Assembly (NCBI GenBank): GCA_050309605.1
Contig: JBNRMN010000021.1
Span: 46,743 to 110,742 of the forward strand
DNA length: 64,000 bases
Source: Anaerohalosphaeraceae bacterium
GTDB lineage: Bacteria; Planctomycetota; Phycisphaerae; Sedimentisphaerales; Anaerohalosphaeraceae
Reading direction: 5' to 3'
Shown here: positions 10,722 through 29,502 of the stretch, in pieces
How positions within the stretch are numbered: position 1 is the stretch's first letter
How the letters are laid out: every line of letters starts with the position of its first letter
Notes under the pieces: generated by a model
What the model saw: the letters and a program-made list of their open reading frames with translations, nothing else
The model's database searches: none
Told to the model about the DNA's origin: nothing
Position numbers and translations under genes: made by a program

Positions 10722-12038
10722 ATGCGAATCGTACAATTGACGCCGGGATCGGGTGATAATTTTTATTGCGAAAACTGCCTGCGCGATTTGGCGCTGGTGC
10801 GGGCGATGCGTCGTTTGGGACACGAGGTGACCCTTGTGCCGATGTATTTGCCGCTTCAGATTCGCAACCCCGAACCATTACAGTCCGCCCCTATCTTCTT
10901 TGGGGGCATCAATGTCTATCTCCAGCAGAAACTCGGCCTGTTTCGCAAGGCCCCGATGTGGCTGGACCGCTGGCTGGACAGCCCGCTGCTGCTGCGGCCG
11001 ATTGCAAAACTGTCTTCGATGACCCGGGCACGCGATCTGGGTGAAACCACCATTTCGATGCTTGAGGGTGCAAACGGACGCCAGAGAAAAGAAATCGAGC
11101 GACTGTGCGACTGGCTGAGGAGTCTGCCGGATCAACCGGATATGATTTTGCTGTCCAATGCGCTTTTGAGCGGACTGGCTCAGCCGCTTCGCGAAGCATT
11201 GGCTCGTCCTGTCGTCTGCCTGCTGCAGGACGAAGACGGCTTTTTGGACGGATTGGGGCATCCGTGGGCCGAGCGTGCCTGGCAGGTACTCCAACAAAAT
11301 ACCTCCGATATAGACCATTTTATCTCGGTCAGTCGCTACTTTGCGGATGTAATGGCCGAACGGATGGGGCTGGATTCGGAGACCCTCACAGTCATTCCGA
11401 CGGGCATTGAGGTCAATGACTTTACCCCCGCGGCCGAACCGCCCGACAAGCCGACCATTGGCTTTCTGGCTCGAATGTGCCACGACAATGGGCTGGATAT
11501 CCTCGTCAATGCGCTGTTTATGCTGCGTCGGGATGAGCGGTTTGCGCAGGCTCGGCTGCTTGTAACCGGCGGCAGTCTTCGCAGCGACGCCGTTTTTCTG
11601 CGCAAAGTCAGACGCCGAATCGAGGCGCTGGATTTATCGGATTATGTCCTCTTCGAACCGGACTACACCGGTACGGCACGAAAAAAATTCCTGAACCGTC
11701 TGTCGGTCATCAGCGTACCGGCACGTAAGCCGATGGCGTACGGTTTGTTTGCCATTGAGGCGATGGCCTGCGGCGTGCCGTTCATTGAGCCGGACGCGGG
11801 CGTATTTTCTGAACTGGCCCGCCATGGCGGAGGCGCTGTTTATGCTCAGAACAATCCGGTGCATTTGGCCGAGATGTTGAGGGATGTGCTCAGCGATCAG
11901 GCACGGTTTGCGCAATTGCGGCGCCGTGCCAGAGAAACGGCCGAAACGATCTTTGATATTGACCATACCGCCGCTCAAATGGCGGCGTGTTTTCAGACGG
12001 TCATCGGTCAGGCGCATCACGCCGCGACAAATGAATAA
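10722..12038 (+). CDS. Glycosyltransferase family 4 (GT-B) protein with N-terminal CxxC
   Basis: LGHEVTL, ISVSRYFA, VIPTGI, IGFLARM, YGLFAIEAMACGVP; FYCENCLRD at the N-terminus. Confidence 0.85.
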   Translation: MRIVQLTPGSGDNFYCENCLRDLALVRAMRRLGHEVTLVPMYLPLQIRNPEPLQSAPIFFGGINVYLQQKLGLFRKAPMWLDRWLDSPLLLRPIAKLSSMTRARDLGETTISMLEGANGRQRKEIERLCDWLRSLPDQPDMILLSNALLSGLAQPLREALARPVVCLLQDEDGFLDGLGHPWAERAWQVLQQNTSDIDHFISVSRYFADVMAERMGLDSETLTVIPTGIEVNDFTPAAEPPDKPTIGFLARMCHDNGLDILVNALFMLRRDERFAQARLLVTGGSLRSDAVFLRKVRRRIEALDLSDYVLFEPDYTGTARKKFLNRLSVISVPARKPMAYGLFAIEAMACGVPFIEPDAGVFSELARHGGGAVYAQNNPVHLAEMLRDVLSDQARFAQLRRRARETAETIFDIDHTAAQMAACFQTVIGQAHHAATNE

Positions 12039-12056
12039 CGGGATAACGGGGACGAA

Positions 12057-12737
12057 ATGCTTGAATTAAATCATATCAGCAAACGTTACGCCAACGGCGG
12101 CGATGTCGTCGAGGTCTTGCGGGATGTTTCACTGCGGGTCGAGTCGGGACAAACGGTCTCGATCGTCGGGCCGTCCGGAAGCGGCAAGAGTACCCTGCTG
12201 AATCTGATCGGCGGACTGGATCGTCCCGATGACGGGACGATTGTTCTGGACGGCGAAAATCTGGCCGGTCTTTCCGATGACGCGCTGGCGGCAGTACGCA
12301 ACCGCAAAATCGGTTTTGTGTTTCAGCTTCATCATCTGCTGCCGCAATGCACGACGCTGGAGAATGTGCTGCTGCCGACACTGGCGACGCGCTGCAGTGC
12401 CGCGCAGCGCAGGACATTCGAGCAGCGCGCCGAGGCACTGCTCGAAAAAGTCGGCTTAACGGACAAGCACCACAGTTTCCCCGGCCAGCTCAGCGGCGGC
12501 CAGCGCCAGCGCGTTGCGCTGATTCGGGCTTTGATCTGTCAGCCCCGGATTGTGTTGGCGGACGAGCCGACCGGTTCATTAGACGCCGAGGCCGCCGAGC
12601 AAATTGCTGAATTGCTTATCGCGCTGAATCAGACCGAAGGGACGACGCTGATTGTTGCCACTCACGCCCTGCCGCTGGCCGAGCGAATGGAACGGCGGCT
12701 TCGGCTGGATCGTAAGCAACTAAAAAAACTCGCTTAA
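12057..12737 (+). CDS. ABC transporter ATP-binding protein (LolD/MacB-type)
   Basis: GPSGSGKST, IGFVFQLHHLL, LSGGQRQRVA, LADEPTGSLD, ATH. Confidence 0.93.
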   Translation: MLELNHISKRYANGGDVVEVLRDVSLRVESGQTVSIVGPSGSGKSTLLNLIGGLDRPDDGTIVLDGENLAGLSDDALAAVRNRKIGFVFQLHHLLPQCTTLENVLLPTLATRCSAAQRRTFEQRAEALLEKVGLTDKHHSFPGQLSGGQRQRVALIRALICQPRIVLADEPTGSLDAEAAEQIAELLIALNQTEGTTLIVATHALPLAERMERRLRLDRKQLKKLA

Positions 12738-12765
12738 TTGGACTGTCACAATAATACGGAAATCC

Positions 12766-15700
12766 ATGCGGTTCGGTAAGGTGTTAACTCGTTCTATTCG
12801 GTATTATCGGCGAACGCATACGGCGCTGATTTGTGCCGCGATGGTGTGTACCGCCGTGCTGACCGGCGCCCTGCTGGTAGGCGATTCGGTGCGGGCCGGG
12901 CTGGAGCGACTGGCAGCCCTGCGGCTGGGACGGGTGCAATACACGCTGCTTGCCGGAGAATACCCCTTTCAAACCGACCTGGCCGAACGCATCAAACAGC
13001 GTACGGGCTATGAGACCGCCGCGGTGCTGATGACCGACGCGACAGTCGAGACCCCCGATGGCTCGGTGCGAATTCATCGAGTTCGTATGCTCGGCGTCGA
13101 TGAGGCCTTCTTTGCCCTGGGTCATTCTGAACCGTCCGACCGGGTCGTGCTGCCGGCAATCAATGAAGCGCTGCGTCGGCGACTGGGCGCATCGTCGGTC
13201 GATTTGATCGTGCGTCTGGACGATCCGTCGGCGTTGTCGCGCGATTTGATCTTTGCCTCTGATGAACAATCACGCCGAACGCTGCGAATCAGCATCAACG
13301 GCCTTGTTCCGGATGACTCACTGGGGCGATTCAGCTTGCAGGCCGACCAGCAGGCGCCGCTGAATGTCTTTGTGCCGCGTTCGTGGCTGGCCGGACAGCT
13401 TGACCTTGAGGGACGCGCCAATCTGCTGGTTGTTTCCGCCGCGCCTTCGGGTCCCTCATCGGCATCGCAATTGGATCGCGCTCTGGCGTGCGTGGTTCAA
13501 CCAGAAGACTTCGGCCTGGAATGGATTGAGTATCCGAACAACGGAACGATTGAACTGCAAAGCATGCGGCTGTTTATTCCGGACCATGTCGGTCAGGCCG
13601 CCGTGCAGTGCGGCCGCGGCCCGCTGCGTGTGTTTTCGTATTTTGTCAACCGTCTTTCGCACGGCACTCGGGCTGCGCCTTATTCGATGGTCGCCGCCCT
13701 CGAAGGAACAGACCGTGCCGATTTGTTTGCAACACTGGGCGACAACGAAATCATCATCAATGAGTGGCTGGCCGACGACTTGAACGTCGAGCCGCGCGAT
13801 ACGCTGCAAATGGATTATTTCGCCATCAGCCCGACCCATACGCTGATTGAACAAAGCCGGACGTTCCTTGTCCGTCAGATCGTGCCGATGCTCGGTTTTG
13901 CCGCCGATGCCACGCTGATGCCGCCGTTTCCCGGCTTGGCGGATGCGGAAAATTGTCAGGACTGGGATCCGGCGATTCCAATTGATCTGAATCGGATTCG
14001 CGATAAGGATGAGGCGTACTGGGACCGTTATCGCGGCACGCCCAAGGCGTTCATCTCGCTGACCACCGCGCAGGATTTATGGCGCAATCGATTCGGCAAT
14101 CTGACGGCGATTCGCTGGCCGATGGCAGACAATACGGTTGAATCGCTGGGCGAGGAGCTGGCCGAGGTGCTGGAGCCGGCGTCGCTGGGGCTGTTTTTTA
14201 TCGATGCCGCCGAGCACAGTCGGCGCGCCGGGGCCGGATCGACGGATTTCGGGGGGTTGTTTGCCGGACTGAGTCTGTTTTTGATATTGGCCTGTGTGGT
14301 GCTACTGGCGTTGATTTTTGTGTTTTCTCTTCAACAGCGCAGCCGTCAGGCGGGGATTTTGCTGGCCATGGGCTGGACGAAAGGCAAAACAGCCCGGCTG
14401 CTGCTGGGCGAGGGCGCATTGCTGGCGCTGCTGGGAACTGTCGGCGGCACGATGCTGGGGGTTGGCTATACACTGGCGATGATGGCGGGTTTGCGAACGG
14501 TCTGGCAGGACGCAGTGGCCGGGGCAATGCTGCGGTTTTACGCCAATCCTGTCACATTGGTTATCGGCGCGGGCGCGGGTTTTGTGGTCGCCATCGGCGC
14601 TATGGGGTGCGGCCTTCTCGTCCATTTCAAGAAGACACCGATTGACCTGCTGTCTTATACCCCCGCTGTTATTTCCGGAACATTTTCGACTGCCGCACGA
14701 ATCATCCGGCTGGTGCTGTTGGCGGTTCTGGCGGCGGCGTTGATTGGTTCATTTTATTTGCTTGATTCGCTACTCCGGCCTGAGCTGTTTTTCTTTATGA
14801 ACGGCAGTCTCTTGCTGCTGATCTTGATGCTGTGGGCCGCGGAAATGATGCGTACCGCGGCTGTGATCCGCAAAACACCGTCCCGTTCGTCTCGGCTGAT
14901 TGCCAAAAACATGATCCGGCGTCCCGGCCGCAGTCTGGCGGTGATGCTGACGGTGGCGTGCGGGGTATTCATCGTGCTGGGTGTTGGACTGAACCGCCGA
15001 AGTCCTGCGCGTTATGCTGAACGCGATTCCGGTACGGGCGGATTTGCCCTCTGGATCGAGACCGCCCTGCCGATGGCCAAAGTGCCCGATGCCTCGTTTG
15101 TCGGTCAAGTCGCCCACGCTGCAAACGCATCCGACGACATCGCAATAGTCGCTTTGCGGCAGCGCCGCGGCGACGACGCCAGTTGTCTGAATCTGAACCG
15201 CGCTCAAAATCCGACACTTTTGGGCGTTGACCCCGACGAATTTGCCCGGCGCGGAGCGTTTTCATTTCGCAGCGCTGAGCCAAGCGGGCCATCACCCTGG
15301 ACATTGCTGACCCAAACCCTCGATGATGGTATGATTCCGGTCATCGGGGATCATGCCACGGTGTATTGGGGACTGGGGCTGGATTTGGGCGATACCCTTG
15401 CGGTACAGGATGACCGGGGACGAGAACTTCATCTGAAAATTGTCGGTATTTTGAAAGAATCCGTCTTTCAGGGTCGTCTTCTTGTCAATGAACGGGATTT
15501 TATTGAGCGGTTCCCGTCGGAAAGCGGGTACACGGTCTTTCTGGCGGAGTCCGACTCCGATAAGATTGATACGCTGACCTCGGCGTTTTCGCGGCAGCTT
15601 GCCGATTATGGCGCGGAAGTAGTTCCGACGAGCGATGTGCTTCGGGACTTTTTGCGGGTAGAAAACACCTATTTAACTATTTTTCTGGCATTGGGCGGAC

Positions 15701-16044
15701 TGGGACTGATTCTCGGCAGTGCCGGCGCGGGATTGGTGTTGCTGTTTAACGTGATTGATCGACGCGGAGAGCTGGCGATGATGCAGGCAATGGGCTTTTC
15801 CAAGGCCGTCCTCAATCGGCTGCTGCTGGCTGAACACATCGGTTTGTTTGCCGCCGGGGTCCTGGTCGGCGGGCTGTCGGCCATTGTGGCGGTGCTGCCT
15901 GCGGTTCAGTCCGCAGGCCTGGGAACCCTGGCCACGGCGCTGCTGCTGACGACCGTGGTTTTATTAAGCGGATTTGTCTGGGTTTGGTTCGGTGGACGGA
16001 CGGCGATGAAACACAACCTGTTGGACAGTTTGCGAAACGAATGA
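12766..16044 (+). CDS. Large FtsX/MacB-type ABC transporter permease (duplicated permease)
   Basis: 1092 aa; two large soluble domains each followed by TM bundles with QRSRQAGILLAMGW / RRGELAMMQAMGF motifs; follows the LolD-like ATPase. Confidence 0.85.
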   Translation: MRFGKVLTRSIRYYRRTHTALICAAMVCTAVLTGALLVGDSVRAGLERLAALRLGRVQYTLLAGEYPFQTDLAERIKQRTGYETAAVLMTDATVETPDGSVRIHRVRMLGVDEAFFALGHSEPSDRVVLPAINEALRRRLGASSVDLIVRLDDPSALSRDLIFASDEQSRRTLRISINGLVPDDSLGRFSLQADQQAPLNVFVPRSWLAGQLDLEGRANLLVVSAAPSGPSSASQLDRALACVVQPEDFGLEWIEYPNNGTIELQSMRLFIPDHVGQAAVQCGRGPLRVFSYFVNRLSHGTRAAPYSMVAALEGTDRADLFATLGDNEIIINEWLADDLNVEPRDTLQMDYFAISPTHTLIEQSRTFLVRQIVPMLGFAADATLMPPFPGLADAENCQDWDPAIPIDLNRIRDKDEAYWDRYRGTPKAFISLTTAQDLWRNRFGNLTAIRWPMADNTVESLGEELAEVLEPASLGLFFIDAAEHSRRAGAGSTDFGGLFAGLSLFLILACVVLLALIFVFSLQQRSRQAGILLAMGWTKGKTARLLLGEGALLALLGTVGGTMLGVGYTLAMMAGLRTVWQDAVAGAMLRFYANPVTLVIGAGAGFVVAIGAMGCGLLVHFKKTPIDLLSYTPAVISGTFSTAARIIRLVLLAVLAAALIGSFYLLDSLLRPELFFFMNGSLLLLILMLWAAEMMRTAAVIRKTPSRSSRLIAKNMIRRPGRSLAVMLTVACGVFIVLGVGLNRRSPARYAERDSGTGGFALWIETALPMAKVPDASFVGQVAHAANASDDIAIVALRQRRGDDASCLNLNRAQNPTLLGVDPDEFARRGAFSFRSAEPSGPSPWTLLTQTLDDGMIPVIGDHATVYWGLGLDLGDTLAVQDDRGRELHLKIVGILKESVFQGRLLVNERDFIERFPSESGYTVFLAESDSDKIDTLTSAFSRQLADYGAEVVPTSDVLRDFLRVENTYLTIFLALGGLGLILGSAGAGLVLLFNVIDRRGELAMMQAMGFSKAVLNRLLLAEHIGLFAAGVLVGGLSAIVAVLPAVQSAGLGTLATALLLTTVVLLSGFVWVWFGGRTAMKHNLLDSLRNE

Positions 16045-16079
16045 AAAAACAACATTCTTATTACTGGAAATCCTGACAA

Positions 16080-17777
16080 ATGAAGGCAGAACACCGTCCT
16101 CAAAAAACGGACTCGGTCGTCTTTGAGCCAATGCCTTCGACGGTTCAGCCATTGAGCCGTCGAGATTTTTTACGTCTGGGGGCCATTGGCGCAGCCGGGA
16201 CCTTGCTGGGACATCTTCGGCCGTCTGTCGCTGCGCCGGCTGATACCGTCTCATTGCCCGATCGGCCCCATATTGTGCTGATTATGTGCGACGATATGGG
16301 GTATTCGGATCTGGGCTGTTATGGCGGTGAGATTCATACCCCCATTCTGGACGGCCTGGCGGCCAATGGGGTGCGGTTCACGCAGTTTTACAACGCGGCA
16401 CGCTGTGTGCCGACACGCGCGAGCCTGATGACGGGGCTTTACCCGCATCAGGCAGGGCTGGGACACATGGTCAACGACCGCGGGCATGACGGGTACAGAG
16501 GCCGGCTCAACGACCGCTGCGTCACCCTTGCCGAGGTGCTGCGCCAGGCGGGCTATCAGACCTTTATGAGCGGCAAATGGCATGTTACGCCCTATGATTA
16601 TGCCAATCCGAAATCGACGCTGGATCGGGAAAGCTGGCCGCTTCAACGGGGCTTTGACGAGTTTTTTGGGACACTTGCGGGGGCCGGCAGTTTTTACGCG
16701 CCCGTTTCGCTGATGCGCAATAACGAATTCATCGCGCCGGGGGATGATTTTTACTATACCGATGCCATCAATGACCAGACCGCCCGTTATATCCGACAGG
16801 CAGACAAGAATCGTCCGTTATTCCTGTATGTCGCGCACACCGCCCCGCATTGGCCGCTGCACGCGCCGGAGGAAACTGTCGCCAAGTATGCGGACACCTA
16901 TACTGTCGGCTGGGATGCGATTCGCCAAGCACGGTACAAACGGATGGTCGAGATGGGAATTATTCAATCCGATTGGCCGCTGACCGAACGGGACAGTCGC
17001 GTGCCGCCGTGGGATGAGGTTGAGCACAAAGACTGGCAAGCAGGGCGCATGGCGGTACATGCGGCCATGGTGGATGTGATGGACCAGGGTATCGGCCGCA
17101 TCGTCGAGGCACTCAAAGAAACCGGACGTTTTGAAAATACGCTGATCCTGTTTTTGTCGGATAACGGCGCTTCCAATGAAGTGATTCAGGGTCAAAACAC
17201 CCGTCATGGACAGTTTGCCCGCGGCGGAACACGTCCTGATGTGATGCCGGGGCCGCCGGATACGTATGCGTCGTTCGGTATCCCATGGGCAAATGCGTCC
17301 AACACGCCGTTTCGGCTTTACAAAAAGTGGATTCATGAAGGCGGTATTGCCGCGCCGCTGATTGCCCATTGGCCGGACGGCATTCAAGCACGCGGCGAAT
17401 TGCGTGCCGACATAGGACACATTATTGACATTATGGCCACCTGTGTCGAGGTCTCCGGCGCGACCTATCCGGCTGAGCGTAATGGCGTATCGGTGCTGCC
17501 GTGTGAAGGGCTTTCGCTCGCGCCGGTCTTTGCCGGAAAACCGCTTCGGCCGCGAGCGATCTTTTTCGAGCATGAGGGCCATCGCGCAGTGCGTTATGGG
17601 CGGTGGAAACTGGTTGCCGAGCATCAAAAGAACTGGGAGCTTTATGATATGCAGGCCGACCGAACGGAAATGAACAATTTGATCGATAGACATCCGGAGC
17701 TTGCCTCGTTAATGGAAGCACTTTATGAACAGTGGGCCAAACGCACCGGCGTTCTGCCCTGGCCTGTGCAAGGCTGA
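16080..17777 (+). CDS. Tat-exported arylsulfatase (formylglycine-dependent)
   Basis: SRRDFL Tat motif, DDMGYSD, CVPTRASLMTG (CxPxR), GKWH, SDNG, EGGI; the start could be 16131. Confidence 0.92.
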   Translation: MKAEHRPQKTDSVVFEPMPSTVQPLSRRDFLRLGAIGAAGTLLGHLRPSVAAPADTVSLPDRPHIVLIMCDDMGYSDLGCYGGEIHTPILDGLAANGVRFTQFYNAARCVPTRASLMTGLYPHQAGLGHMVNDRGHDGYRGRLNDRCVTLAEVLRQAGYQTFMSGKWHVTPYDYANPKSTLDRESWPLQRGFDEFFGTLAGAGSFYAPVSLMRNNEFIAPGDDFYYTDAINDQTARYIRQADKNRPLFLYVAHTAPHWPLHAPEETVAKYADTYTVGWDAIRQARYKRMVEMGIIQSDWPLTERDSRVPPWDEVEHKDWQAGRMAVHAAMVDVMDQGIGRIVEALKETGRFENTLILFLSDNGASNEVIQGQNTRHGQFARGGTRPDVMPGPPDTYASFGIPWANASNTPFRLYKKWIHEGGIAAPLIAHWPDGIQARGELRADIGHIIDIMATCVEVSGATYPAERNGVSVLPCEGLSLAPVFAGKPLRPRAIFFEHEGHRAVRYGRWKLVAEHQKNWELYDMQADRTEMNNLIDRHPELASLMEALYEQWAKRTGVLPWPVQG

Positions 17778-21188: not shown

Positions 21189-22498
21189 GCCGTGCATTCA
21201 ACAGGCGCTGGATTGTTGTAATGCTGTGGCTGGGGCTGTTTTCGGTGGCGACGGCGGTGCAGCGGTTTCCGCCGCCTCAATTCAGCGAACCGCGCGAGCT
21301 GCCGGAACCCACAACACCGCCGCCGCGCTCAATGACAATGGAGACCGTTGATGTGGCGGTGCTGGCCGCGGCGCTGATGCTGGCGGCCTGGCTGATTCTC
21401 AAAAAACGCCGTCGCGGGTGGATCGTGGCGCTGATGCTGTTTTCGCTGGGGTATTTCGGTTTTTGGCGTCAGGGGTGTATCTGTCCGATCGGCGCAATCG
21501 GCAACGTATCGCTGGCGATTTTTGACGCATCGTATGCCCTGCCGCTGACGGTGCTGGCGTTTTTTCTGCTGCCGCTGCTGTTTACGCTGTTTTTCGGACG
21601 GGTTTTTTGCGGGGCGGTCTGTCCGCTGGGGATGGTGCAGGATCTGGTCTTGATCCGCCCTCTGCGCATCCCGGCATGGCTCGAATCGGGGCTTCGGTTG
21701 TTTGCGTGGCTGTACCTGGGGCTTGCAATCTTAATGGCCGCGACCGCCAGTGCGCTGGTCATCTGTCGATACGATCCGTTTGTGGCGTTTTTCCGACTGG
21801 GGGCCAATCCGCAATTGTGGATAATCAGCCTTTCGGTCCTGGTGGTTTCGCTGTTTGTGGGCCGGCCGTACTGTCGCTTCCTGTGTCCTTACGGCGTGAT
21901 TCTTCGGCAATTGGGACGGCTGTCCAAATACCGCGTGACGATCACGCCCGATGAGTGCATTCATTGCCGTTTGTGTGAAGACGCCTGTCCGTTTGGGGCG
22001 ATAGACAAACCGACCGTCGAATGGCCTGACAGCCAGCGCGTCAAAGCGCGTCATCGGGCGCGCGTGCTGCTGATGCTGCTGCCAATGATCCTGTTGCTGG
22101 GCGGCTGGATCGGCTTCAAAGCCGCACCGGCACTGGCCCGCTCCAATGCCGCCGTTCGGCTGGCCGAGCGGATTCGACTGGAAGAGGCCGGCCTGGTTGC
22201 CGACCGGACGGATGAAAGCACCGCCTTTCGCACAACCAACCGCACGATTGAAAGCCTTTACACAGAGGCCGAGAACAAACAGCAGGATTTTGTCATTGGC
22301 TCGACGCTACTGGGCGGTGCAATGGGACTGTTGTGCGGCCTGACGCTGATGCGGACTCATATCTGTTTTCGGCGCGATCAATATGAGGCCCATCGCGCCG
22401 GCTGCGTGGCCTGCGGGCGCTGCTATCTGTCCTGTCCGCGTGAACAACTGCGACGACAACGACGAACTGATCTTCAACCGGCGGAGTCAACTGCATGA
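21185..22498 (+). CDS. Polytopic membrane 4Fe-4S protein (NapH/MauN-like)
   Basis: Multiple TMs; CICPIG, CGAVCPLG, CRFLCPYG (CxxxCP); CIHCRLCEDACP and CVACGRCYLSCP; ATGA overlap with the upstream gene. Confidence 0.85.
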   Translation: MSRAFNRRWIVVMLWLGLFSVATAVQRFPPPQFSEPRELPEPTTPPPRSMTMETVDVAVLAAALMLAAWLILKKRRRGWIVALMLFSLGYFGFWRQGCICPIGAIGNVSLAIFDASYALPLTVLAFFLLPLLFTLFFGRVFCGAVCPLGMVQDLVLIRPLRIPAWLESGLRLFAWLYLGLAILMAATASALVICRYDPFVAFFRLGANPQLWIISLSVLVVSLFVGRPYCRFLCPYGVILRQLGRLSKYRVTITPDECIHCRLCEDACPFGAIDKPTVEWPDSQRVKARHRARVLLMLLPMILLLGGWIGFKAAPALARSNAAVRLAERIRLEEAGLVADRTDESTAFRTTNRTIESLYTEAENKQQDFVIGSTLLGGAMGLLCGLTLMRTHICFRRDQYEAHRAGCVACGRCYLSCPREQLRRQRRTDLQPAESTA

Positions 22499-24237
22499 GA
22501 GACTATGACGATACACCTGAAATCAGTCCGCTTCGACAGGCCGCGGGCGGCACGGCCATTGTAACCGGCGTCTTCGGCGTGTTCATTGCGGCGCTGCTGG
22601 CGCTGCATTTGTATCACTACGTTGTCACTGACCCGGCGCGAACGGATGAACTGGAACAGTTGAAAGAGCAGTACACCCGCGAGCCGACTAATGCGCAACT
22701 GGCCGAACGCATTTATGAACTGGATATTCAGACGCGGCGGGATCAGTTTGCCCGATTGTATTTCCTGCAGCGCGGCACCTTGCTGCTGGTGATTGATTTG
22801 GCGGTCTTTGTATCGGCGGTTTTGATTCGTACGCAACATTGGCGCACGCCCGCCCTGCCGGATGCGGCCGGCGACCGCAAAACCGAACAAATCCGCCACG
22901 CGCTGCATGTACGTACGGCGGTTACGCTGACGGCGGTTGTGCTGGCAGGAGGCGGGCTGTATCTGGCGCAGCATCCTTTCGAAACTCCGCCGCCCCCGGC
23001 TGCGTCCGATGCAGCCGATCCGCAACCGGCTGAACCGGTGTATGCATCGTTTGAAGACACGCTGGCTCAGTGGCCGGCCTTTCGCGGCCCGCAGGGGCTG
23101 GGCGTTACCGAGTTGGACACAATTCCTGACGACTGGGACGGTCCGAGCGGGCGCAACATCCTCTGGAAAAGTTCGGTTCCGCTTGAGGGGCATAATTCGC
23201 CGGTGATTTGGGAAGATCGCGTCTTTCTGAGCGGTGCAACCGACCAGCAGCAGCAAATCTTCTGTTATGATCTCAACAGCGGGCAACTGCTCTGGGCCGG
23301 CGACGTGGCGATAGCCGACGATCCAGATCGCGAAAATATGTACATCATGGAGGATACCGGTTACGCCGCACCGACGGTCGTAACCGACGGCTATCGGGTC
23401 GCAGCCATCTTTGCCGGCGGCGACGTGGGCTGTTTCACCGTCGAGGGGGAACGTTTGTGGCATCGGCACCTGGGCGTGCCCGAAAGCGCCTACGGCTATG
23501 CCGCGTCGCTGACGGCGTATGAACAGAACATTATCGTTCAATACGACGTGAGTTATGAAGCCGGCCAAAGTCGGCTGATCGCACTGGACTGGCAGACCGG
23601 CCGCATCGTCTGGCAAACGCCGCGTCCCGTGCCGAACTCATGGTCGTCTCCGACGGTTGTACAAGTCGGCGAGACGCCGCAACTGTTGACCAGCGGCTCG
23701 CCGTGGGTCATTGCCTACGATCCGGCCGCCGGCACAGAATTGTATCGCGCCGACGCCCTCAGCGGCGATGTGGCGCCGACACAGGTTTTTGCCGACAACA
23801 AGATTCTGGCCATTGAACCGTATAACTCCATCGTGGCAATTCGTACTGAAGAGGCCAACGGCGATGTAACCGACACGCATCTGGCCTGGCGCAGTCCGGC
23901 CGACATCCCCGACATTTCCAGTCCGGTCAGCGATGGAACGCTCGTCTGGACGCTGAGCACCTACGGCACACTCATCGCATTCGATCTTTCGGACGGGAGC
24001 GAAGTCTATTCCGAGCGTCTTGATTTTGAATTTCAGGCTTCGCCAAGCATCGTCAATGACCGGCTGTATCTGCTGTCTGTCCGGGGGACGATGATTCTGG
24101 CCGAGACCGGGCGCCAATACCGTGAAATCAAACAACTTGAGCTGGGCGAAAAGTGCTACGCCACGCCGGCCTTTGCCCCGGGACGCATCGTTATCCGCGG
24201 CATCAACCATTTGTATTGCATAGGAACAGCACCGTGA
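22495..24237 (+). CDS. Membrane-anchored PQQ-like beta-propeller protein 2
   Basis: N-terminal TM segments, WPAFRGPQGLG, CYDLNSGQLLW, ALDWQTGRIVW, SWSSP; ATGA overlap. Confidence 0.85.
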   Translation: MRDYDDTPEISPLRQAAGGTAIVTGVFGVFIAALLALHLYHYVVTDPARTDELEQLKEQYTREPTNAQLAERIYELDIQTRRDQFARLYFLQRGTLLLVIDLAVFVSAVLIRTQHWRTPALPDAAGDRKTEQIRHALHVRTAVTLTAVVLAGGGLYLAQHPFETPPPPAASDAADPQPAEPVYASFEDTLAQWPAFRGPQGLGVTELDTIPDDWDGPSGRNILWKSSVPLEGHNSPVIWEDRVFLSGATDQQQQIFCYDLNSGQLLWAGDVAIADDPDRENMYIMEDTGYAAPTVVTDGYRVAAIFAGGDVGCFTVEGERLWHRHLGVPESAYGYAASLTAYEQNIIVQYDVSYEAGQSRLIALDWQTGRIVWQTPRPVPNSWSSPTVVQVGETPQLLTSGSPWVIAYDPAAGTELYRADALSGDVAPTQVFADNKILAIEPYNSIVAIRTEEANGDVTDTHLAWRSPADIPDISSPVSDGTLVWTLSTYGTLIAFDLSDGSEVYSERLDFEFQASPSIVNDRLYLLSVRGTMILAETGRQYREIKQLELGEKCYATPAFAPGRIVIRGINHLYCIGTAP

Positions 24238-26579
24238 GTGAGCCGGACTTGACATTTGTGGATCAAAGCGTTGAGCGCATCGGCAAAGCGCCGCGATTCG
24301 TTCTGCCGCTGCTGCAGGCGATCCAGGGGCACTACGGCTATCTGCCGAGTGAAGCGCTTGAGCGTCTGTGTGCTGTGAGCGATTGTCAGCCGGGCGATGT
24401 GTGGTCGGTGGCGACGTTTTACGACCAGTTTCGTCTGCGTCCGGCCGGCAAGCACTTCGTGCGGGTTTGTATCGGTACGGCCTGCCATGTCAAAGGGGCA
24501 ACTCGTATTTATGACGCCTTTCGTGACTATCTGAAGATCACCGGCGATGACGACACCGACACCGAGCGCCAATTCACGGTGGAAAAAGTCGCCTGTCTGG
24601 GTTGCTGTATGCTGGCGCCGGCGATTCAGATTGACGATGTCATCTATGGGCATTTGCAGCCGGAAACGGTCGGGCAGGTGCTGGATGATTTCCTGGCCCA
24701 GCAGGACAGCAAGCCCGCCGAGGAGCAGGATAAAGACGCTCACGCCGTTCATCACGGCCAGGCGCGAATTTGCCTGGATTCGAGCTGCCGCGCCGTCGGC
24801 AGTGACAAGGTGTACGCCGCGCTGAAACAGGTCGCTAAACGACTGCGTCTGCCCGTGCGTGTCAAAGACACCGGCTGCCACGGGATGTCTTATCTGGCGC
24901 CGCTGGTGGAGGTGCTGACCGAGGACGGGCGGGTGTTTCGATACGGCCGTGTCCAGCCGGCGGATGTCGAGCCGTTGCTGCGCCGACACTTTCGACCGGC
25001 CTCACTGCCGGCACGCATCGGGGCCAAAGCGGCGGATTGGCTGGATTCGCTCGTCGAAGATCGTCTGGACGAAGGACCGGTACGCTATACGCTGCACGTC
25101 CGCCCGCACGAGACGGATCGCTATCTCGGCCCGCAGGTACACATCGCCACCGAACATTTCGGCCACGCCGAGCCGTTGGATATTGAGGAATACCAATCGC
25201 ATGGCGGATTTACGGCACTGCGCCGCTGCCTGGAACAGAATGACCCTGAGGCTGTGGTTGCTGCAATAGAACAGGCCGGCCTGCGCGGTCGCGGCGGCGG
25301 CGGATTTCCTACCCATCTGAAATGGTTTGCTGTGCAGAAAACACCGTCGGACAAAAAATACATTATCTTAAACGGCGATGAAGGCGACCCCGGTGCGTTT
25401 ATGGATCGGATGCTGATGGAGTCGTATCCGTTTCGCATCCTGGAGGGAATGGCGATTGCCGCCGCGACGGTCGGGGCCGACGAGGGCTATTTGTATATTC
25501 GCGCCGAGTATCCGCTTGCCCTTGAACGGATGCGAAAAGCCATTGAGCTGTGTCGTCAGCACGGCTATTTGGGGCGCCGCATTGGCGGCAGCGGGTTTTC
25601 GCTGGATTTGCATATTTACGTCGGCGCCGGGGCGTTTGTCTGCGGCGAGGAAACGGCTTTGCTGGCCAGTATCGAAGGCCGACGCGGGATGCCGCATCTG
25701 CGCCCGCCCTATCCGACACGCCAAGGCCTGTGGCACAAGCCAACGCTGGTCAACAATGTCGAGACCTATGCGCTCGTACCCTGGATACTGCGCAACGGTC
25801 CGGAGGCCTTTGCCGCATACGGCACCGAACACAGCAAAGGCACCAAGGTCTTTGCACTGGCCGGCAAGGTGCGCCGGGGCGGATTGGTCGAAGTCCCGAT
25901 GGGCATTACGATCCGCCAAATCGTCGAGGACATCGGCGGCGGCATTGAACACGACCGGGCGCTGAAGGCTGTCCAGATCGGCGGTCCGTCGGGCGGCTGT
26001 GTAGCGGCGTCGATGGCCGATACGCCGATTGACTACGAATCGCTGCATCACGCCGGGGCGATTATGGGTTCCGGCGGTATGGTCGTGCTGGATGAGACCG
26101 ACTGTATGGTTGATATCGCCCGCTATTTTCTGGCGTTTACGCAGGAACAATCCTGCGGCAAATGCACGTTCTGCCGGGTCGGCACCAAACGAATGCTTGA
26201 ACTGCTGGATCGTCTGTGCGAGGGGAAAGGCAAGACCGGCGACATTGAAAAACTGACCGAGCTGGGACATCAGATTCAGCAAAGCAGCCTTTGCGGACTG
26301 GGCAAGACCGCCCCGAATCCGGTGCTGTCCACGATTGCCCATTTTCGCGACGAGTATGAGGCACATCTGCACGGGCACTGCCCGGCGTGTACCTGTCGGT
26401 CCTTGATCCGCTTTACGATTACCGACCAATGTATCGGCTGTACGCTCTGTGCTCAGCACTGTCCATCGGATGCCATCTTGATGAAACCGTATGAACAACA
26501 CGAAATCGATCAGGATAAATGTGTCCGCTGCGGCGTCTGCAAGAGCGTCTGTCCGGCCGATGCGGTCCACGTCGAGTAA
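24234..26579 (+). CDS. Fused HydC/NuoE-HydB/NuoF NADH-dependent Fe-S flavoprotein
   Basis: CIGTAC...CLGCC [2Fe-2S]; GLRGRGGGGFPT; GDEGDPGAFMDR; GAGAFVCGEETAL; GGPSGGC; SCGKCTFCR...SLCGLG; two C-terminal CxxCxxCxxxCP; GTG start in a GTGA overlap. Confidence 0.9.
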   Translation: MSEPDLTFVDQSVERIGKAPRFVLPLLQAIQGHYGYLPSEALERLCAVSDCQPGDVWSVATFYDQFRLRPAGKHFVRVCIGTACHVKGATRIYDAFRDYLKITGDDDTDTERQFTVEKVACLGCCMLAPAIQIDDVIYGHLQPETVGQVLDDFLAQQDSKPAEEQDKDAHAVHHGQARICLDSSCRAVGSDKVYAALKQVAKRLRLPVRVKDTGCHGMSYLAPLVEVLTEDGRVFRYGRVQPADVEPLLRRHFRPASLPARIGAKAADWLDSLVEDRLDEGPVRYTLHVRPHETDRYLGPQVHIATEHFGHAEPLDIEEYQSHGGFTALRRCLEQNDPEAVVAAIEQAGLRGRGGGGFPTHLKWFAVQKTPSDKKYIILNGDEGDPGAFMDRMLMESYPFRILEGMAIAAATVGADEGYLYIRAEYPLALERMRKAIELCRQHGYLGRRIGGSGFSLDLHIYVGAGAFVCGEETALLASIEGRRGMPHLRPPYPTRQGLWHKPTLVNNVETYALVPWILRNGPEAFAAYGTEHSKGTKVFALAGKVRRGGLVEVPMGITIRQIVEDIGGGIEHDRALKAVQIGGPSGGCVAASMADTPIDYESLHHAGAIMGSGGMVVLDETDCMVDIARYFLAFTQEQSCGKCTFCRVGTKRMLELLDRLCEGKGKTGDIEKLTELGHQIQQSSLCGLGKTAPNPVLSTIAHFRDEYEAHLHGHCPACTCRSLIRFTITDQCIGCTLCAQHCPSDAILMKPYEQHEIDQDKCVRCGVCKSVCPADAVHVE

Positions 26580-26604
26580 CAACACGGAATACACCGACCG
26601 CTCG

Positions 26605-26646
26605 ACGAACTAAAACTACGAACTACGAACTAAGAACTAAAAAACT
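26605..26646. repeat. Heptamer tandem repeat (ACGAACT-type, about 6 degenerate units)
   Basis: acgaact aaaact acgaact acgaact aagaact aaaaaact, directly before the GTG at 26648. Confidence 0.85.
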
Positions 26647-26647
26647 C

Positions 26648-28264
26648 GTGCCAACACTGACCATTGACAATCAGACGGTTGAGGCGCCTGATGGCGCTAC
26701 GATTCTTGAGGCAGCTCATGCGGCCGGGATTCACATCCCGACGATGTGTTATCTGAAAGGTTTTGCTCCCTCAACAAGCTGTATGGTGTGCGTCGTGCGG
26801 GTCGAGGGCGTCAAGTCCCTCGTGCCGGCCTGCGGGGCTATGGCGGTGGATCGGATGCACGTCACCACCGACAGCGACGAAATCCGCGCCGCCCGCAAGG
26901 CCGCCATTGAACTGCTGCTCAGCGATCATTTGGGCGACTGCGTCGGGCCGTGTCAGATGGGCTGTCCGGCGGGAATGAACATCCCGCTGATGCTTCGGCA
27001 TATTGCTGACGGTGATGACCGGGCGGCGATAGAAGTTATCAAACGCGACATTCCTTTGCCCGCGATTTTGGGCAGGATATGTCCGGCCCCATGCGAAAAG
27101 GTCTGCCGACGGGCCAAAATTGACCAGGCCGTGTCCATTTGTCGGCTCAAACGCTTTGCTGCGGACATAGATTTGGATTGCGGCGAACCTTTTGAGCCGT
27201 CTGTACGTTCTAATAAGAGTAAAACCGTCGCCATTATCGGCGCTGGGCCGTGCGGCCTTTCGGCGGCATATTATCTGGCCTGTGAGGGAATCGAGTGTGT
27301 CGTCTATGATGAACATGCCCGGCCCGGCGGTGCGGTGCGATATGGGCCAATTGATCGAAAGGTACTGCCTATTGATATCGTTGAGCGGGAAACGGGACTG
27401 TTGTTGAAACACAATATTACATTTCAACCGCAGCAGCGAATCGGCAAAGATGTCGCGTTTGATACGCTATGCCGAGACTTTGACGCGGTGCTCGTGGCCG
27501 CGGGCGACCCGATGCTGTACGACAGAAACGAGTTTGCACTGGATGTCAAAGACAACCACATCCGTGTGGATCGCCAAACGTATGCAACCTCGCGTAAGGG
27601 GGTCTTTGCCGCAGGCGGGGCAATCGGCAGCCGTCGATGGGCGGTGCGGGCGGTCGCCGACGGCAAAGAGGCCGCGGATTCGATAGCCGTGTATCTGGAG
27701 AAAAAACCCCTTGTTTCAAAAAAACCGTTCAACAGCCGAATGGGCGCCTTGTCGCCGGAAGAACAGAAAACGCTGCTCGCCACCGCCAACGCCGAGCCGC
27801 GATATGAACCGAGTGAGCCAACCGCCGGTTTGGACGACACGGATGCGCGGGCTGAAGCGCGGCGGTGTCTGCATTGCGACTGCCGCAAGGCCGAACACTG
27901 TCGCCTGCGTGATTTGGCGTTCGAGTTCAATGCCCGCCAAAGCCAATGGGCCGGTCAGCGCAAGACAATGCGGATTGAGTTTGGCAAGGATTGCGTTGTC
28001 TATGAACCGGGCAAGTGCATCCAGTGCGGCCTGTGCATTCAGACCGCCCGGAAAGCCGACGAAACAACAGGGCTGGCCTTTGTCGGTCGGGGATTTGCAA
28101 TGCGCATCGGGGTCCCGTTTGAAAAAACTTTGCCCGAGGCAATCGCCCGTGCGGGAGCCGAATGCGTCGCAAACTGCCCGACCGGCGCCTTGGCGTTTGA
28201 CGACTCTTCGCAGGATATGGAGAACCAACAGCAAGAAACGACAAATGAATCGTTCCGACAGTAA
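26648..28264 (+). CDS. HydA/NuoG-N-terminal-like Fe-S protein with inserted partial GltD/NfnB-like FAD domain
   Basis: IPTMC..SCMVC..PAC [2Fe-2S]; HLGDC..PCQMGCP, GRICPAPCEKVC; GAGPCG FAD motif; EARRCLHCDC..C; KCIQCGLC...CPTGAL; GTG start at 26648. Confidence 0.85.
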   Translation: MPTLTIDNQTVEAPDGATILEAAHAAGIHIPTMCYLKGFAPSTSCMVCVVRVEGVKSLVPACGAMAVDRMHVTTDSDEIRAARKAAIELLLSDHLGDCVGPCQMGCPAGMNIPLMLRHIADGDDRAAIEVIKRDIPLPAILGRICPAPCEKVCRRAKIDQAVSICRLKRFAADIDLDCGEPFEPSVRSNKSKTVAIIGAGPCGLSAAYYLACEGIECVVYDEHARPGGAVRYGPIDRKVLPIDIVERETGLLLKHNITFQPQQRIGKDVAFDTLCRDFDAVLVAAGDPMLYDRNEFALDVKDNHIRVDRQTYATSRKGVFAAGGAIGSRRWAVRAVADGKEAADSIAVYLEKKPLVSKKPFNSRMGALSPEEQKTLLATANAEPRYEPSEPTAGLDDTDARAEARRCLHCDCRKAEHCRLRDLAFEFNARQSQWAGQRKTMRIEFGKDCVVYEPGKCIQCGLCIQTARKADETTGLAFVGRGFAMRIGVPFEKTLPEAIARAGAECVANCPTGALAFDDSSQDMENQQQETTNESFRQ

Positions 28265-28317
28265 CGTCTTTATCGTCAAATTAAAAAACGTCAATGTTAA
28301 AGATTGGGAAAACAGCA

Positions 28318-29502
28318 ATGAAAGCAAAAATTTGGATGACATTTATTTCCGCAGCTATCGTCTTGTCCGCCTCGGCGATCGCGGCCGACTGGCCGCATTG
28401 GCGCGGCCCGAATCTGGACGGCATCAGCACCGAGACTGACTGGAATCCGCAGGCGCTGAACGATTTGAATATTGTCTGGGAGGCTGAAATCGGCATCGGC
28501 TTTTCCTCCGTCAGCGTTGCCGGCGGCAGGGCCTATGTCATGGGCAATATCAATCGCAACACCGATGTGCTGTATTGCTTTGACGCGGCCAGTGGCGATG
28601 AGCTGTGGCGATTTGAGTACGCCGAGCCGCTGAATCCGAAGTACTATGAAGGCGGCCCCGGCTCGACGCCGACCGTCCATGAGGGCAAGGTCTATACCCT
28701 CAGCAAAACCGGCAAAGTCCACTGCGTTAACGCACACACCGGCGAGCTGATCTGGAATCTCAACCTGCCGCACAAGGAAACGACATGGGGATTTGCCTCG
28801 TCGGGGCTGATTCTTGACGACAAGGTCATCTTCAACGTCGGCGCATCGGGGGTGGCCTTGAATAAGAATGACGGCAGCATCGTCTGGGACAGCGATAAAA
28901 GCGAATCCGGCTACGCCACACCCGTTCCCTTCACGCACAATGGAAAAACCCTGCTGGCCATTTTTGGCAAAGAGACGCTAATGGCTGTCGATCCGACGGA
29001 TGGAAAGCGAATGTGGAGCTATCCCTGGAAAACACAGCACGACGTGAATGCCGCTGACCCGATCATTGTCGGGGATGAAATTTTTATTACTTCCGGCTAC
29101 AATCGCGGCGCGACGCTGCTGAAAATCGCCTCGCCGCCGACGCGCGTCTGGGAAAACAAAAATATGCGCAGCCAGATGAGCGGACCGGTACTGATCGACG
29201 GCTATCTGTACGGCATCGATCAGAATCAACTGGCGTGCGTGGAATGGAAAACCGGCAAACAGCTCTGGGCCGAGCGCAAAGCGGGCAACGGCTCGCTGAC
29301 CGCCGCCGGCGATAAACTCATCGTCGCCAGCGAAGGCGGGCGATTGATGATCGTCCAGGCCACGCCGGACGGTTTCCAGGAATTATCCGGCGCCGACATC
29401 CTGAGCGCCCGCTGCTGGGCGCCGCCGGTACTGTCGGGCGGCCGTATCTACTTTCGCAACTCACGCGGAAAGCTGGTCTGTGTGGATGTAAGGAATCAAT
29501 AA
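28318..29502 (+). CDS. Secreted PQQ-like beta-propeller protein 3
   Basis: Signal peptide ending AIA|ADWPHWRGPNLDG; blades CFDAASGDELW, CVNAHTGELIW, CVEWKTGKQLW. Confidence 0.88.
   Translation: MKAKIWMTFISAAIVLSASAIAADWPHWRGPNLDGISTETDWNPQALNDLNIVWEAEIGIGFSSVSVAGGRAYVMGNINRNTDVLYCFDAASGDELWRFEYAEPLNPKYYEGGPGSTPTVHEGKVYTLSKTGKVHCVNAHTGELIWNLNLPHKETTWGFASSGLILDDKVIFNVGASGVALNKNDGSIVWDSDKSESGYATPVPFTHNGKTLLAIFGKETLMAVDPTDGKRMWSYPWKTQHDVNAADPIIVGDEIFITSGYNRGATLLKIASPPTRVWENKNMRSQMSGPVLIDGYLYGIDQNQLACVEWKTGKQLWAERKAGNGSLTAAGDKLIVASEGGRLMIVQATPDGFQELSGADILSARCWAPPVLSGGRIYFRNSRGKLVCVDVRNQ

Follow-up and report, generated by a model that had tools for sequence, protein, structure and literature searches.

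The flavo-iron-sulfur oxidoreductases StnABC of Sporomusa ovata (PDB 8OH5) and NfnABC of Thermococcus sibiricus (PDB 9N5U), known as Stn/Nfn-Bfu enzymes, are among the closest described counterparts of the gene cluster analysed here, which occupies positions 10722-29502 of a 64,000-nucleotide stretch of DNA (hereafter the window) from an Anaerohalosphaeraceae bacterium. They share with this cluster a HydC/HydB-type core and a large-subunit layout comprising a [2Fe-2S] domain, a GltD-like 2x[4Fe-4S] and FAD domain, NuoG-type clusters and a lysine at the FAD-proximal cluster. The bifurcating [FeFe]-hydrogenase HydABC also shares this core, with the C-terminal ferredoxin domain found on HydB, but the window cluster encodes no H-cluster domain. 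A Bfu core has also been proposed to be attached to membrane subunits in Nuo-Bfu and Mbh-Bfu, the former reported for Planctomycetes, according to the accessible text of PMC9304861; the membrane parts described there are complex-I or Mbh proton-pumping modules, whereas the window cluster encodes a NapH-like protein and a propeller anchor.

The NapGH, MauMN and NosR/NosGH systems resemble the membrane portion of the cluster. They pair a polytopic Fer4_5 protein, with two CX3CP motifs and a C-terminal 4Fe-4S region, with a Tat multi-cluster ferredoxin, and the exported ferredoxin of the pair serves a periplasmic enzyme. In the nos and mau clusters the enzyme served by the NapH/NapG-type pair is a periplasmic beta-propeller; an ABC (ATP-binding cassette) system is needed for maturation in nos, and a small Cys-rich subunit with a long RR-type leader is present in mau. 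The window cluster differs from NapGH and MauMN in that the 2x[4Fe-4S] domain of its membrane protein is split by a transmembrane hairpin and that an NADH module lies in the same coupled gene string. It lacks the Nap, Nos or Mau catalytic subunit, its propellers are of the PQQ_2 and NHL types, and its small Cys-rich protein has no conserved Trp. Pfam and NCBIfam scans of the window proteins returned no homologue of NosZ, NosD, NosL, MauA, MauB or MauG.

We find that the genes at this locus form a conserved, translationally coupled operon of planctomycetes and some Bacteroidales. By sequence, the cytoplasmic proteins are homologous to Stn/Nfn-Bfu enzymes but have no NADP(H) site, so that the known part of the system would be its Bfu core and the new part a membrane-spanning third module of a Bfu enzyme. 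We assign a probability of about one half to the reading that the products form one complex moving electrons between NADH/ferredoxin and the periplasm, usually outward as an electron sink, with the substrate site held by the first of three PQQ_2-type propellers (PQQ1 to PQQ3) and by an NHL propeller. An initial annotation, made from the DNA alone, had recognised no characterised complex in this architecture, and a full-text literature search, outside the scope of which lay subscription-only papers and bioRxiv supplements, likewise returned no description of the gene set. The set does not appear in the accessible text of the Bfu family paper (PMC9304861), which mentions neither PQQ nor NapH and lists Planctomycetes under Nuo only, or in that of a paper on Hydrogenedentota Bfu enzymes (PMC11406978). 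The operon is hence apparently undescribed.

Direct reading of the open reading frame (ORF) listing, together with Pfam and NCBIfam scans of the window proteins, outlined twelve large ORFs, all co-directional on the + strand, and one small ORF:

10722-12038 (+): GT4 glycosyltransferase (Pfam Glycos_transf_1, 7e-18, and further GT4 families)
12057-12737 (+): LolD/MacB/FtsE-type ABC ATPase (ABC_tran, 1.2e-37)
12766-16044 (+): duplicated FtsX-type permease of 1092 residues (FtsX domain, 1.5e-12)
16080-17777 (+): Tat-signal sulfatase (Sulfatase, 2.7e-59; weak TAT_signal match)
17850-19247 (+): PQQ1, a PQQ_2/BamB-like propeller (PQQ_2, 7.1e-25)
19330-20376 (+): NHL propeller protein (NHL, 1.1e-10)
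20387-20638 (+): small RR-motif Cys4 protein of 83 residues (direct sequence reading)
20631-21188 (+): Tat-signal polyferredoxin (Fer4 families, RRRFLRE motif)
21185-22498 (+): NapH-like polytopic Fe-S membrane protein (Fer4_5 in two stretches, 3.7e-16)
22495-24237 (+): PQQ2, a propeller with an N-terminal membrane domain (PQQ_2, 1.1e-18)
24234-26579 (+): NuoE-NuoF fusion, or NuoEF (2Fe-2S_thioredx, Complex1_51K, NADH_4Fe-4S, Fer4)
26648-28264 (+): GltD-like Fe-S flavoprotein of StnC/NfnA type (Fer4_20, NAD_binding_8; PDB alignments)
28294-29502 (+): PQQ3, a PQQ_2 propeller with a signal peptide (PQQ_2, 9e-38)

The 13 co-directional genes counted in the initial annotation do share their orientation, but its gene list had overlooked the small ORF, and the sulfatase at 16080-17777, which it did not name, was identified by Pfam. 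Its assignments of the GT4, the LolD-like ATPase, the FtsX permease, three PQQ_2 propellers and one NHL propeller agree with the Pfam and NCBIfam results, as do those of the four-cluster Tat ferredoxin and the polytopic Fer4_5 protein with the domain matches. The overlapping start and stop codons that it had reported, ATGA at 21185 and 22495 and GTGA at 24234, are all real. These 4-nucleotide overlaps join the ferredoxin, NapH-like, PQQ2 and NuoEF genes, and an 8-nucleotide overlap joins the small Cys4 ORF to the ferredoxin; the coupled gene string thus comprises the Cys4 protein, the ferredoxin, the NapH-like protein, PQQ2 and NuoEF. In agreement with the same annotation, no cluster protein contains a CxxCH motif, and Pfam detected no H-cluster, NiFe or molybdopterin domain among them.

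A promoter-like site had been placed at 10654 in the initial annotation; the promoter scan gave none there, the nearest being at 10318-10346, and its six sites show no excess over the 5.9 expected from shuffles. Terminator-like sites numbered 19, against 12.7 +/- 3.4 in shuffles, and lay mostly within genes. Rfam searches at E<=1 over 8800-32500 returned two sub-threshold chance matches, none of them in the spacer between the NHL and ferredoxin genes.

The conserved core and its cytoplasmic module

A search with the NapH-like protein gave 6537 relatives at E<=1e-10 among 8000 candidates scored, many of them 55-60% identical. To survey related loci, a pattern derived from an alignment of 13 of these relatives was scanned against one genome per species, and at least 580 of the first 600 pattern matches encoded a NapH-like relative. 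The best 80 loci from these 600 matches were taken as the synteny sample, in which ORFs of at least 60 residues were assigned by blastp (E<=1e-5, query coverage of 40% or more) to the window protein that matched best. Presence was counted solely in loci with enough DNA on the relevant side, with GT4, ABC ATPase and FtsX permease sought within 10 kb. The sample comprises loci from Pirellulales (25), Sedimentisphaerales (15), Planctomycetota (12), Phycisphaerae (9), Anaerohalosphaeraceae (6), Phycisphaerales (4) and Bacteroidales (3), with one each from Aegiribacteria, Planctomycetales, Phycisphaera, Rhodopirellula, Planctomycetaceae and an entry labelled only 'bacterium'; the three Bacteroidales loci and the Aegiribacteria locus are metagenome-assembled genomes.

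The analysis revealed a seven-gene core, formed by PQQ1 (present in 59/64 loci), NHL (67/69), ferredoxin (72/73), the NapH-like protein, PQQ2 (72/73), NuoEF (66/67) and the GltD-like protein (59/63), whose order is kept in 59-72 of 63-73 loci. Most loci have the gene order of the window, which is maintained in Phycisphaerae, Pirellulales, Rhodopirellula, Aegiribacteria and Bacteroidales, and in the Bacteroidales locus L066 it persists at 29-59% identity. The redox-and-propeller core is hence a strictly conserved unit across phyla. Co-conservation across phyla had been proposed as a check on the cluster being one system, and the outcome is positive for the redox core; the GT4/ABC half, which had been included in that system, is linked to it together with the FtsX permease in about two thirds of the loci. 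The downstream PQQ3-type propeller was present in 38 of 53 loci, and extra propeller paralogues occur upstream, four of them in the Bacteroidales loci L066, L079 and L080 and two in L078. A degraded cluster was observed on a Phycisphaerales chromosome (bin7; L043), where PQQ1, NHL and ferredoxin are missing, NuoEF is partial and a single open frame of 902 residues (8540-11248) spans a sulfatase and the NapH-like gene.

A chance adjacency of unrelated co-directional genes could account for some members of the window cluster, since the sulfatase is an unrelated insertion and the HpiC1-like, DUF1559 and upstream pseudopilin-like genes described below are not generally conserved. As an explanation of the whole, it can be given next to no probability in view of the core order retained in distant lineages and of the start/stop overlaps.

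The NuoE-NuoF fusion presents strong matches to Complex1_51K (1.3e-44), NADH_4Fe-4S (1.2e-33) and 2Fe-2S_thioredx (1.3e-43). Its best PDB matches, 9bov_B (4e-209), NfnB (9n5u_B), StnB (8oh5_B) and HydB, align over the full length, including the N-terminal Trx-like and C-terminal ferredoxin domains, whereas complex I NuoF chains cover the core alone and their alignments end near residue 712. The C-terminal 2x[4Fe-4S] domain matches Fer4_21 and Fer4 at residues 758-806, with 100% conservation of its eight Cys. Across 65 orthologues, conservation is 98-100% for the NuoE Cys, the N3-type Cys, these eight Cys and H711/C716/C721. An extra C-terminal 2x[4Fe-4S] ferredoxin domain on BfuB has been described as a mark of bifurcating enzymes that is absent in non-bifurcating homologues (PMC9304861, accessible text). 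The HydC-HydB-like fusion proposed in the initial annotation is therefore of the bifurcating (Bfu/HydBC) type by full-length homology, and the protein appears equivalent to BfuC-BfuB or HydC-HydB, with a predicted FMN/NADH site.

The other cytoplasmic protein had been labelled HydA-like, but its closest relatives are StnC and NfnA, and it shares with HydA the N-terminal Fe-S domains alone. It has the large-subunit layout outlined above for the Stn/Nfn-Bfu enzymes and matches Fer4_20 (3.9e-17), NAD_binding_8 (1.8e-9) and, under that model's cutoff, PRK12814 (6.5e-122). FeFe-hydrogenase NCBIfam models matched its N-terminal Fe-S part alone (154.7 bits against a cutoff of 765), and no Fe-hydrogenase large-subunit (H-cluster) domain was found by Pfam in the 17 window proteins scanned. 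The gene likely starts at GTG 26648, because the similarity to homologues sets in near residue 45 of the long ORF; ATG 26519 is the alternative.

The best PDB matches of this GltD-like protein are 9bov_A (2e-99), StnC (8oh5_C, 1.4e-81) and NfnA (9n5u_A, 1.1e-79). The alignments fall into two blocks, with query residues 47-329 matching residues 6-286 of StnC/9bov_A and query residues 321-558 matching 426-671; residues 287-425 of StnC/9bov_A are thus skipped, and the alignment stops at residue 671 of chains of 1172-1178 residues. In StnC, residues 102-565 form a GltD-like module whose two Rossmann folds accommodate FAD and NADPH, and residues 683-1172 an inactive FdhF-like domain, as given in the accessible text of PMC10482914. 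Since the alignments skip 287-425 and end at 671, the window protein and its aligned orthologues lack both the NADP(H) Rossmann domain (~287-425) and the FdhF-like tail. The median length of the window protein and 58 aligned orthologues is 527 residues, against 1172 for StnC. In these 59 sequences the GxGxxG motif, K211 and all cluster Cys are conserved, with K211, which aligns with the StnC cluster ligand K170, at least 95% conserved. The window cluster differs further from Stn/Nfn-Bfu in that NuoE and NuoF are fused and that the genes are embedded among genes for membrane and periplasmic proteins. Both this setting and the missing NADPH domain argue that NADP+ cannot be the third substrate.

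Membrane-spanning and periplasmic components

The NapH-like protein is predicted to have about seven hydrophobic segments, and 15 Cys are invariant among 81 sequences. They comprise a C-x-C pair, two CX3CP motifs, C194 and two CxxCxxCxxxCP motifs flanking a transmembrane hairpin. Its Fer4_5 repeats exceed the Pfam cutoff (59.3 against 22), but the protein scores only 56.6 bits with the NapH model TIGR02163 (cutoff 213.05) and 49 with PRK09477 (cutoff 234), and it is best described, by sequence, as a distant relative of NapH/MauN and not as a member of that family. A PDB sequence search returned generic ferredoxin-motif matches for this protein and no solved homologue of its membrane part.

The resemblance bears on an alternative in which the Bfu core and the NapH-like protein would form an NADH(+ferredoxin):quinone oxidoreductase of an alternative kind, the Tat ferredoxin would take electrons from quinol as in NapGH, and the propellers would be structural or regulatory. 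NapH/MauN is the nearest named family of the membrane protein, and the clusters of L017, L021, L036, L054, L058 and L053 enclose a gene for a Tat-signal WrbA-like homologue of FMN quinone reductases. Furthermore, membrane-bound quinone-reducing Nuo-Bfu have been predicted, Planctomycetes included (PMC9304861, accessible text). Such a system would not account for the strict retention of three to seven propellers together with the NHL and Cys4 proteins, and the low NapH score also speaks against it; we regard it as unlikely.

The ferredoxin, whose gene likely starts at ATG 20631, has seventeen Cys that are 97-100% conserved in 70 sequences and make up about four [4Fe-4S] motifs. The NapG model TIGR00397 was absent among its matches at E<=0.001, and on this evidence the ferredoxin resembles NapG/MauM in architecture only. 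Between the NHL stop at 20376 and this ATG, an apparent gap of 251 nucleotides is in fact occupied by the conserved Cys4 ORF. A regular expression recovered this ORF in 61 of 74 sequences (the 73 ferredoxin loci and the window), and some of the misses correspond to cut loci or altered spacing. Its product presents an RR motif, a hydrophobic stretch of ~20 residues, a basic patch and a C-x5-8-C-x2-C-x5-C-x-LP motif, with R11, C47, C56, C59 and C65 invariant in 49 sequences. No Pfam or NCBIfam family was matched, apart from weak Tat-signal-type matches alone. A profile search of 1.84 billion representatives identified 2509 relatives at E<=0.001 and 892 at E<=1e-10, of which the best 150 are proteins of 68-127 residues, all stand-alone and without fusions. 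The Cys4 domain may be either exported, behind a Tat-type anchor, or cytoplasmic, according to the positive-inside rule. We also considered the protein as a precursor of a ribosomally synthesized and post-translationally modified peptide or of a quinone cofactor, and set this role aside: it has no conserved Trp or Tyr, and its gene is coupled to the ferredoxin and not to the GT4/ABC genes. Small ORFs inside operons of this kind escape annotation, as this 83-residue gene did.

All four propellers carry N-terminal hydrophobic segments consistent with export, as the initial annotation had proposed, or with anchoring, with PQQ1 and NHL predicted to be anchored and PQQ3 to have a signal peptide; no lipobox Cys was found in the propeller N termini. 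PQQ2 has hydrophobic segments at residues 21-39 and 88-106, and probably a third near 142-160. In the ESM Atlas, PQQ1 fell into generic PQQ-like clusters and the N-terminal 175 residues of PQQ2 into unnamed clusters alone. A true quinoprotein was considered and rejected, given TIGR03075 scores of 27.1 (PQQ1), 18.5 (PQQ2) and 60 bits (PQQ3) against a cutoff of 480, and PF01011 matches the propellers in short partial stretches alone. The BamB model TIGR03300 gave 40, 43 and 73 bits for PQQ1, PQQ2 and PQQ3 (cutoff 285), which does not support membership in that family.

The AlphaFold2 model of PQQ1 is an eight-bladed propeller behind an N-terminal helix (predicted local distance difference test, pLDDT, 89.7). 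Among PDB structures it comes closest to BamB and tetrathionate hydrolase, with 15-19% identity and Foldseek E-values of ~1e-16 to 1e-18. Like them, PQQ1 is an eight-bladed PQQ_2-type propeller without bound cofactor, but it has an N-terminal membrane anchor and its own invariant residues (H162, H260, M258, C140, C217, C376, C459, R166, Q216, Q355 and R452). In our reading of the model, these residues lie mostly in long loops preceding the blades, which are the usual funnel-forming positions in propeller enzymes. PQQ1, the best-conserved propeller, is a candidate for a substrate or partner site.

The NHL protein is modelled as a six-bladed NHL propeller (pLDDT 89.6) with the NHL domains of TRIM2/3 as top PDB folds. 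A vicinal Cys pair (G253-C254-C255-N256-P257) is invariant in 65 sequences, and the protein also has an E272-K273...R277...K279 patch. A profile search recovered 566 relatives at E<=1e-20, whose names say little: most read 'hypothetical protein' or 'NHL repeat-containing protein', and a few are automatic labels, for example YncE or lactonase YvrE.

PQQ3 is a paralogue of PQQ1 (hhalign against the PQQ1 profile, 8.6e-41, 29% identity) without the H/M/R motif of the latter. Its copy number varies among loci, and tandem-fused forms of 816-1252 residues occur; long ORFs assigned to PQQ3 or PQQ2 were considered as functional fusion hints and proved to be merely tandem propellers.

Companion and neighbouring genes

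The genes upstream of the core behave differently from it. The GT4 was found in 31 of 47 loci, the ABC ATPase in 36 of 50 and the FtsX permease in 35 of 51 by the automatic rule, which missed the permeases of L024 and L078. The three genes are absent around the Rhodopirellula, Phycisphaera sp. RhM and Planctomycetaceae copies, which argues that they are accessory and not core. Conversely, GT4 and ABC sit downstream instead of upstream in L066 and L078, and this co-movement in Bacteroidales-type loci argues for a functional link with the core. The GT4-ABC-FtsX trio is a frequent, mobile and dispensable companion.

The CxxC motif noted earlier in the GT4 is upheld, C16xxC19 being invariant in all 32 aligned sequences and C166 97% conserved; no NCBIfam model reached its cutoff for this protein. 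For the ABC ATPase, the best NCBIfam model was LolD (253.2 bits, cutoff 307.75), and the glycolipid exporter DevA matched at 4.4e-54. The permease has two large periplasmic domains, nine hydrophobic segments and a match to the ADOP duplicated-permease tail; C397 and C807 are invariant in 30 sequences. Its FtsX domain exceeds the Pfam cutoff, and the lolCE model gives 23 bits against 362. By sequence, the pair would belong to the LolCDE/MacB type VII superfamily, with no named subfamily fitting.

Together with the BamB-like propellers, this transporter and the GT4 might be taken for an envelope machine that builds or maintains a lipoprotein, glycolipid or outer-membrane protein, the redox module merely reducing disulfides, a lipid or a cofactor for a maturation step. 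The BamB chains heading the structural matches of PQQ1, the LolD and DevA matches of the ATPase, the MacB-like periplasmic core of the L078 permease, and the invariant vicinal Cys-Cys and periplasmic Cys would suit such a role. The likeness to BamB is nevertheless at the level of fold (18% identity; TIGR03300 40 against 285), the transporter and GT4 are the dispensable half of the cluster, and a large Bfu-type core would be an unusually heavy supply for a maturation step, so that we consider this explanation very improbable.

The slot between FtsX and PQQ1 is variable, as it holds the sulfatase in the window and in L001 and an extra propeller in L002. Among the 80 loci, a sulfatase at this position is found in L001 alone, a 96%-identical relative whose sulfatase is 87% identical; in the other 79, sulfatase-like ORFs occur only on the opposite strand at the flanks (L008, L033, L043). 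The sulfatase is probably a lineage-specific insertion outside the system.

Clustering of the unassigned ORFs of the loci identified further lineage-specific additions, none of which has a homologue in the window. A Cys-rich polytopic protein of 170-220 residues, with CPxC, CPC and CxxCP motifs and no Pfam or NCBIfam family, lies at the cluster edge on either strand in 13 loci (L009, 18346-18852). A cytoplasmic 2x[4Fe-4S] protein of ~260 residues directly follows PQQ3 in eight loci (L002, 16101-16874), and it is followed in four or five loci by a class-B-like radical SAM protein of ~520 residues (L002, 16918-18489), which may be a maturase; these two additions are also found among L071, L049, L003, L004, L005 and L041. 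The Tat-signal WrbA-like/FMN_red flavoprotein mentioned above is encoded on the opposite strand between the GltD-like protein and PQQ3 (L017, 16927-17697, -) in five or six loci; an exported flavoprotein of this type is unusual and could be an alternative periplasmic partner. These additions point to differences among lineages in maturation and in further redox partners in the periplasm.

In the window, the cluster is followed at 29553-30377 (+) by an HpiC1-like beta-sandwich protein with a dockerin-like C terminus, ATGA-coupled to a DUF1559/N-methyl pseudopilin-like protein at 30374-31153 (+). The pair also follows PQQ3 in L006 and L030, with 50-51% and 68-70% identity, and may extend the cluster in a lineage-specific way. 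A KamA-family radical SAM aminomutase, with a 63%-identical copy downstream in L056, lies at the downstream cluster end (31154-32284, -), and a GSDH-family protein (soluble glucose/sorbosone dehydrogenase type) just outside the cluster (32553-33986, -). About 5 kb downstream, the genes for a catalase and a ferritin/rubrerythrin-like protein are adjacent (34240-36315, -), which suggests that the organism meets oxygen. On the other side, a GspK-like pseudopilin of 516 residues without Pfam match (9084-10634, +) lies just upstream of the GT4, and three ATPase genes of type II secretion system/type IV pilus type are arranged in a row with a type II secretion system F gene at 108-6503 (-). Farther downstream, between 38297 and 47860, five ORFs of 325-605 residues have no Pfam match at E<=1e-5:

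38297-40111 (-): ORF without Pfam match
40386-41360 (+): ORF without Pfam match
42218-43885 (-): ORF without Pfam match
44357-45715 (+): ORF without Pfam match
46442-47860 (+): ORF without Pfam match

Direction and destination of the electron flow

Taken together, the components outline how a single complex could work. The operon would encode a membrane-bound Bfu (HydBC/StnAB-type) flavo-iron-sulfur oxidoreductase with a periplasmic third partner; lacking a soluble third substrate site, the cytoplasmic module would dock on the NapH-type polytopic Fe-S protein, whose split 2x[4Fe-4S] domain and CX3CP motifs would face the cytoplasm, as the Fe-S domain and CX3CP motifs of NapH do. Electrons would then pass, directly or via quinone, to the Tat-exported four-cluster ferredoxin and the small Cys4 protein, and from there to the membrane-tethered propellers, with their His/Met/Arg/Cys loops (PQQ1) and vicinal Cys-Cys (NHL) and with PQQ2 built into the membrane part. 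The membrane and periplasmic placement is predicted because of the Tat motifs, the N-terminal hydrophobic segments and the Fer4_5 CX3CP repeats. The most likely direction would be outward: fermentative anaerobes would use the complex as an electron sink, passing the electrons of NADH, and probably also those of reduced ferredoxin, to an acceptor in the periplasm. As facultative accessories, the GT4 and the MacB/LolCDE-type transporter would help to mature, export or mechanically activate the periplasmic components.

The same anatomy would serve a flow in the opposite direction, in which the periplasmic part would oxidise a low-potential donor and pass electrons through the NapH-like protein to a Bfu core, where bifurcation would deliver them to NAD+ and ferredoxin. 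Electron transfer from a donor in the periplasm to the cytoplasm is electrogenic, and such a system would be a proton-motive-force-generating uptake complex, analogous to uptake hydrogenases or formate dehydrogenases. Bfu enzymes are described as working in both directions, with a third substrate that is in many cases a donor (H2, formate, NADPH; PMC9304861, accessible text), so the outward direction of our preferred reading is not fixed. The cluster scans, however, returned no domain known to oxidise H2, formate, CO, sulfide or phosphite. We know of no cofactor-less propeller that oxidises such donors, and we judge inward flow to be distinctly unlikely. The neighbours of L066, L078, L075 and L008, inspected for substrate hints, are housekeeping or unrelated genes.

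Besides this reversibility, several observations weigh against a single outward-directed complex. NapH in NapGH is described as a quinol dehydrogenase, and for this reason no direct wiring between the cytoplasmic module and the ferredoxin is required. Both the NapH-like protein and the ferredoxin score far under the curated NapH/MauN and NapG/MauM cutoffs, and in about one third of the loci GT4, ABC and FtsX are absent within 10 kb. The cluster is also found in a Rhodopirellula isolate record (L075), and since Rhodopirellula is an aerobic genus, a fermentative sink fits poorly there. The propellers match BamB, tetrathionate hydrolase and TRIM NHL domains alone, at 15-20% identity, and may be scaffolds rather than catalysts. 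A complex prediction for PQQ1 (60-465), NHL (45-348) and the mature ferredoxin partner gave scores of 0.34, 0.03 and 0.00 (median 0.03 against a mark of 0.32), which is evidence neither for nor against binding. Lastly, the N-terminal Trx-like domain of NuoEF keeps C185 and C215 only, C180 being present in 34% of 65 sequences and the fourth position being Ser, so that the predicted cluster content differs from that of some Bfu cores. These incomplete ligands are compatible with Bfu membership, because NfnABC of Thermococcus sibiricus has Zn at two such metal sites, B2 and B5 (in the N-terminal Trx-like domain and at the His/Cys site that follows the NuoF core), and still bifurcates (PMC12018979, accessible text).

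A further proposal concerns the periplasmic end itself, which could be a new terminal oxidoreductase without a heme, molybdopterin, copper-A/Z or nickel centre. The ferredoxin and the 35-residue Cys4 domain would feed the NHL Cys-Cys and the His/Met/Arg/Cys loops of PQQ1, which would employ thiol/persulfide chemistry or an unrecognised cofactor on candidate acceptors such as polysulfide, elemental sulfur or quinone-like shuttles. The driving force would come from confurcation of NADH with reduced ferredoxin, and the GT4 and ABC proteins would mature or energise the periplasmic part. We put this forward tentatively and hold it to be rather unlikely.

If this last proposal is borne out, the operon would be a widespread, so far unrecognised, respiratory-type electron sink in fermentative Planctomycetota and Bacteroidales. 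Should the propellers be catalytic, the anaerobes that degrade polysaccharides in sediments and digesters would possess a new redox chemistry in the periplasm, and models of their fermentation balance would change. For the Bfu family, in which 17 BfuB clades are without an assignable function (PMC9304861, accessible text), the cluster offers a concrete and very widespread candidate function for one of these clades. It would place a Bfu core on a NapH-type membrane protein, rather than on a complex-I or Mbh module, and it bears on the long-open role of the cytoplasmic Fe-S clusters in NapH, NosR and MauN-type proteins.

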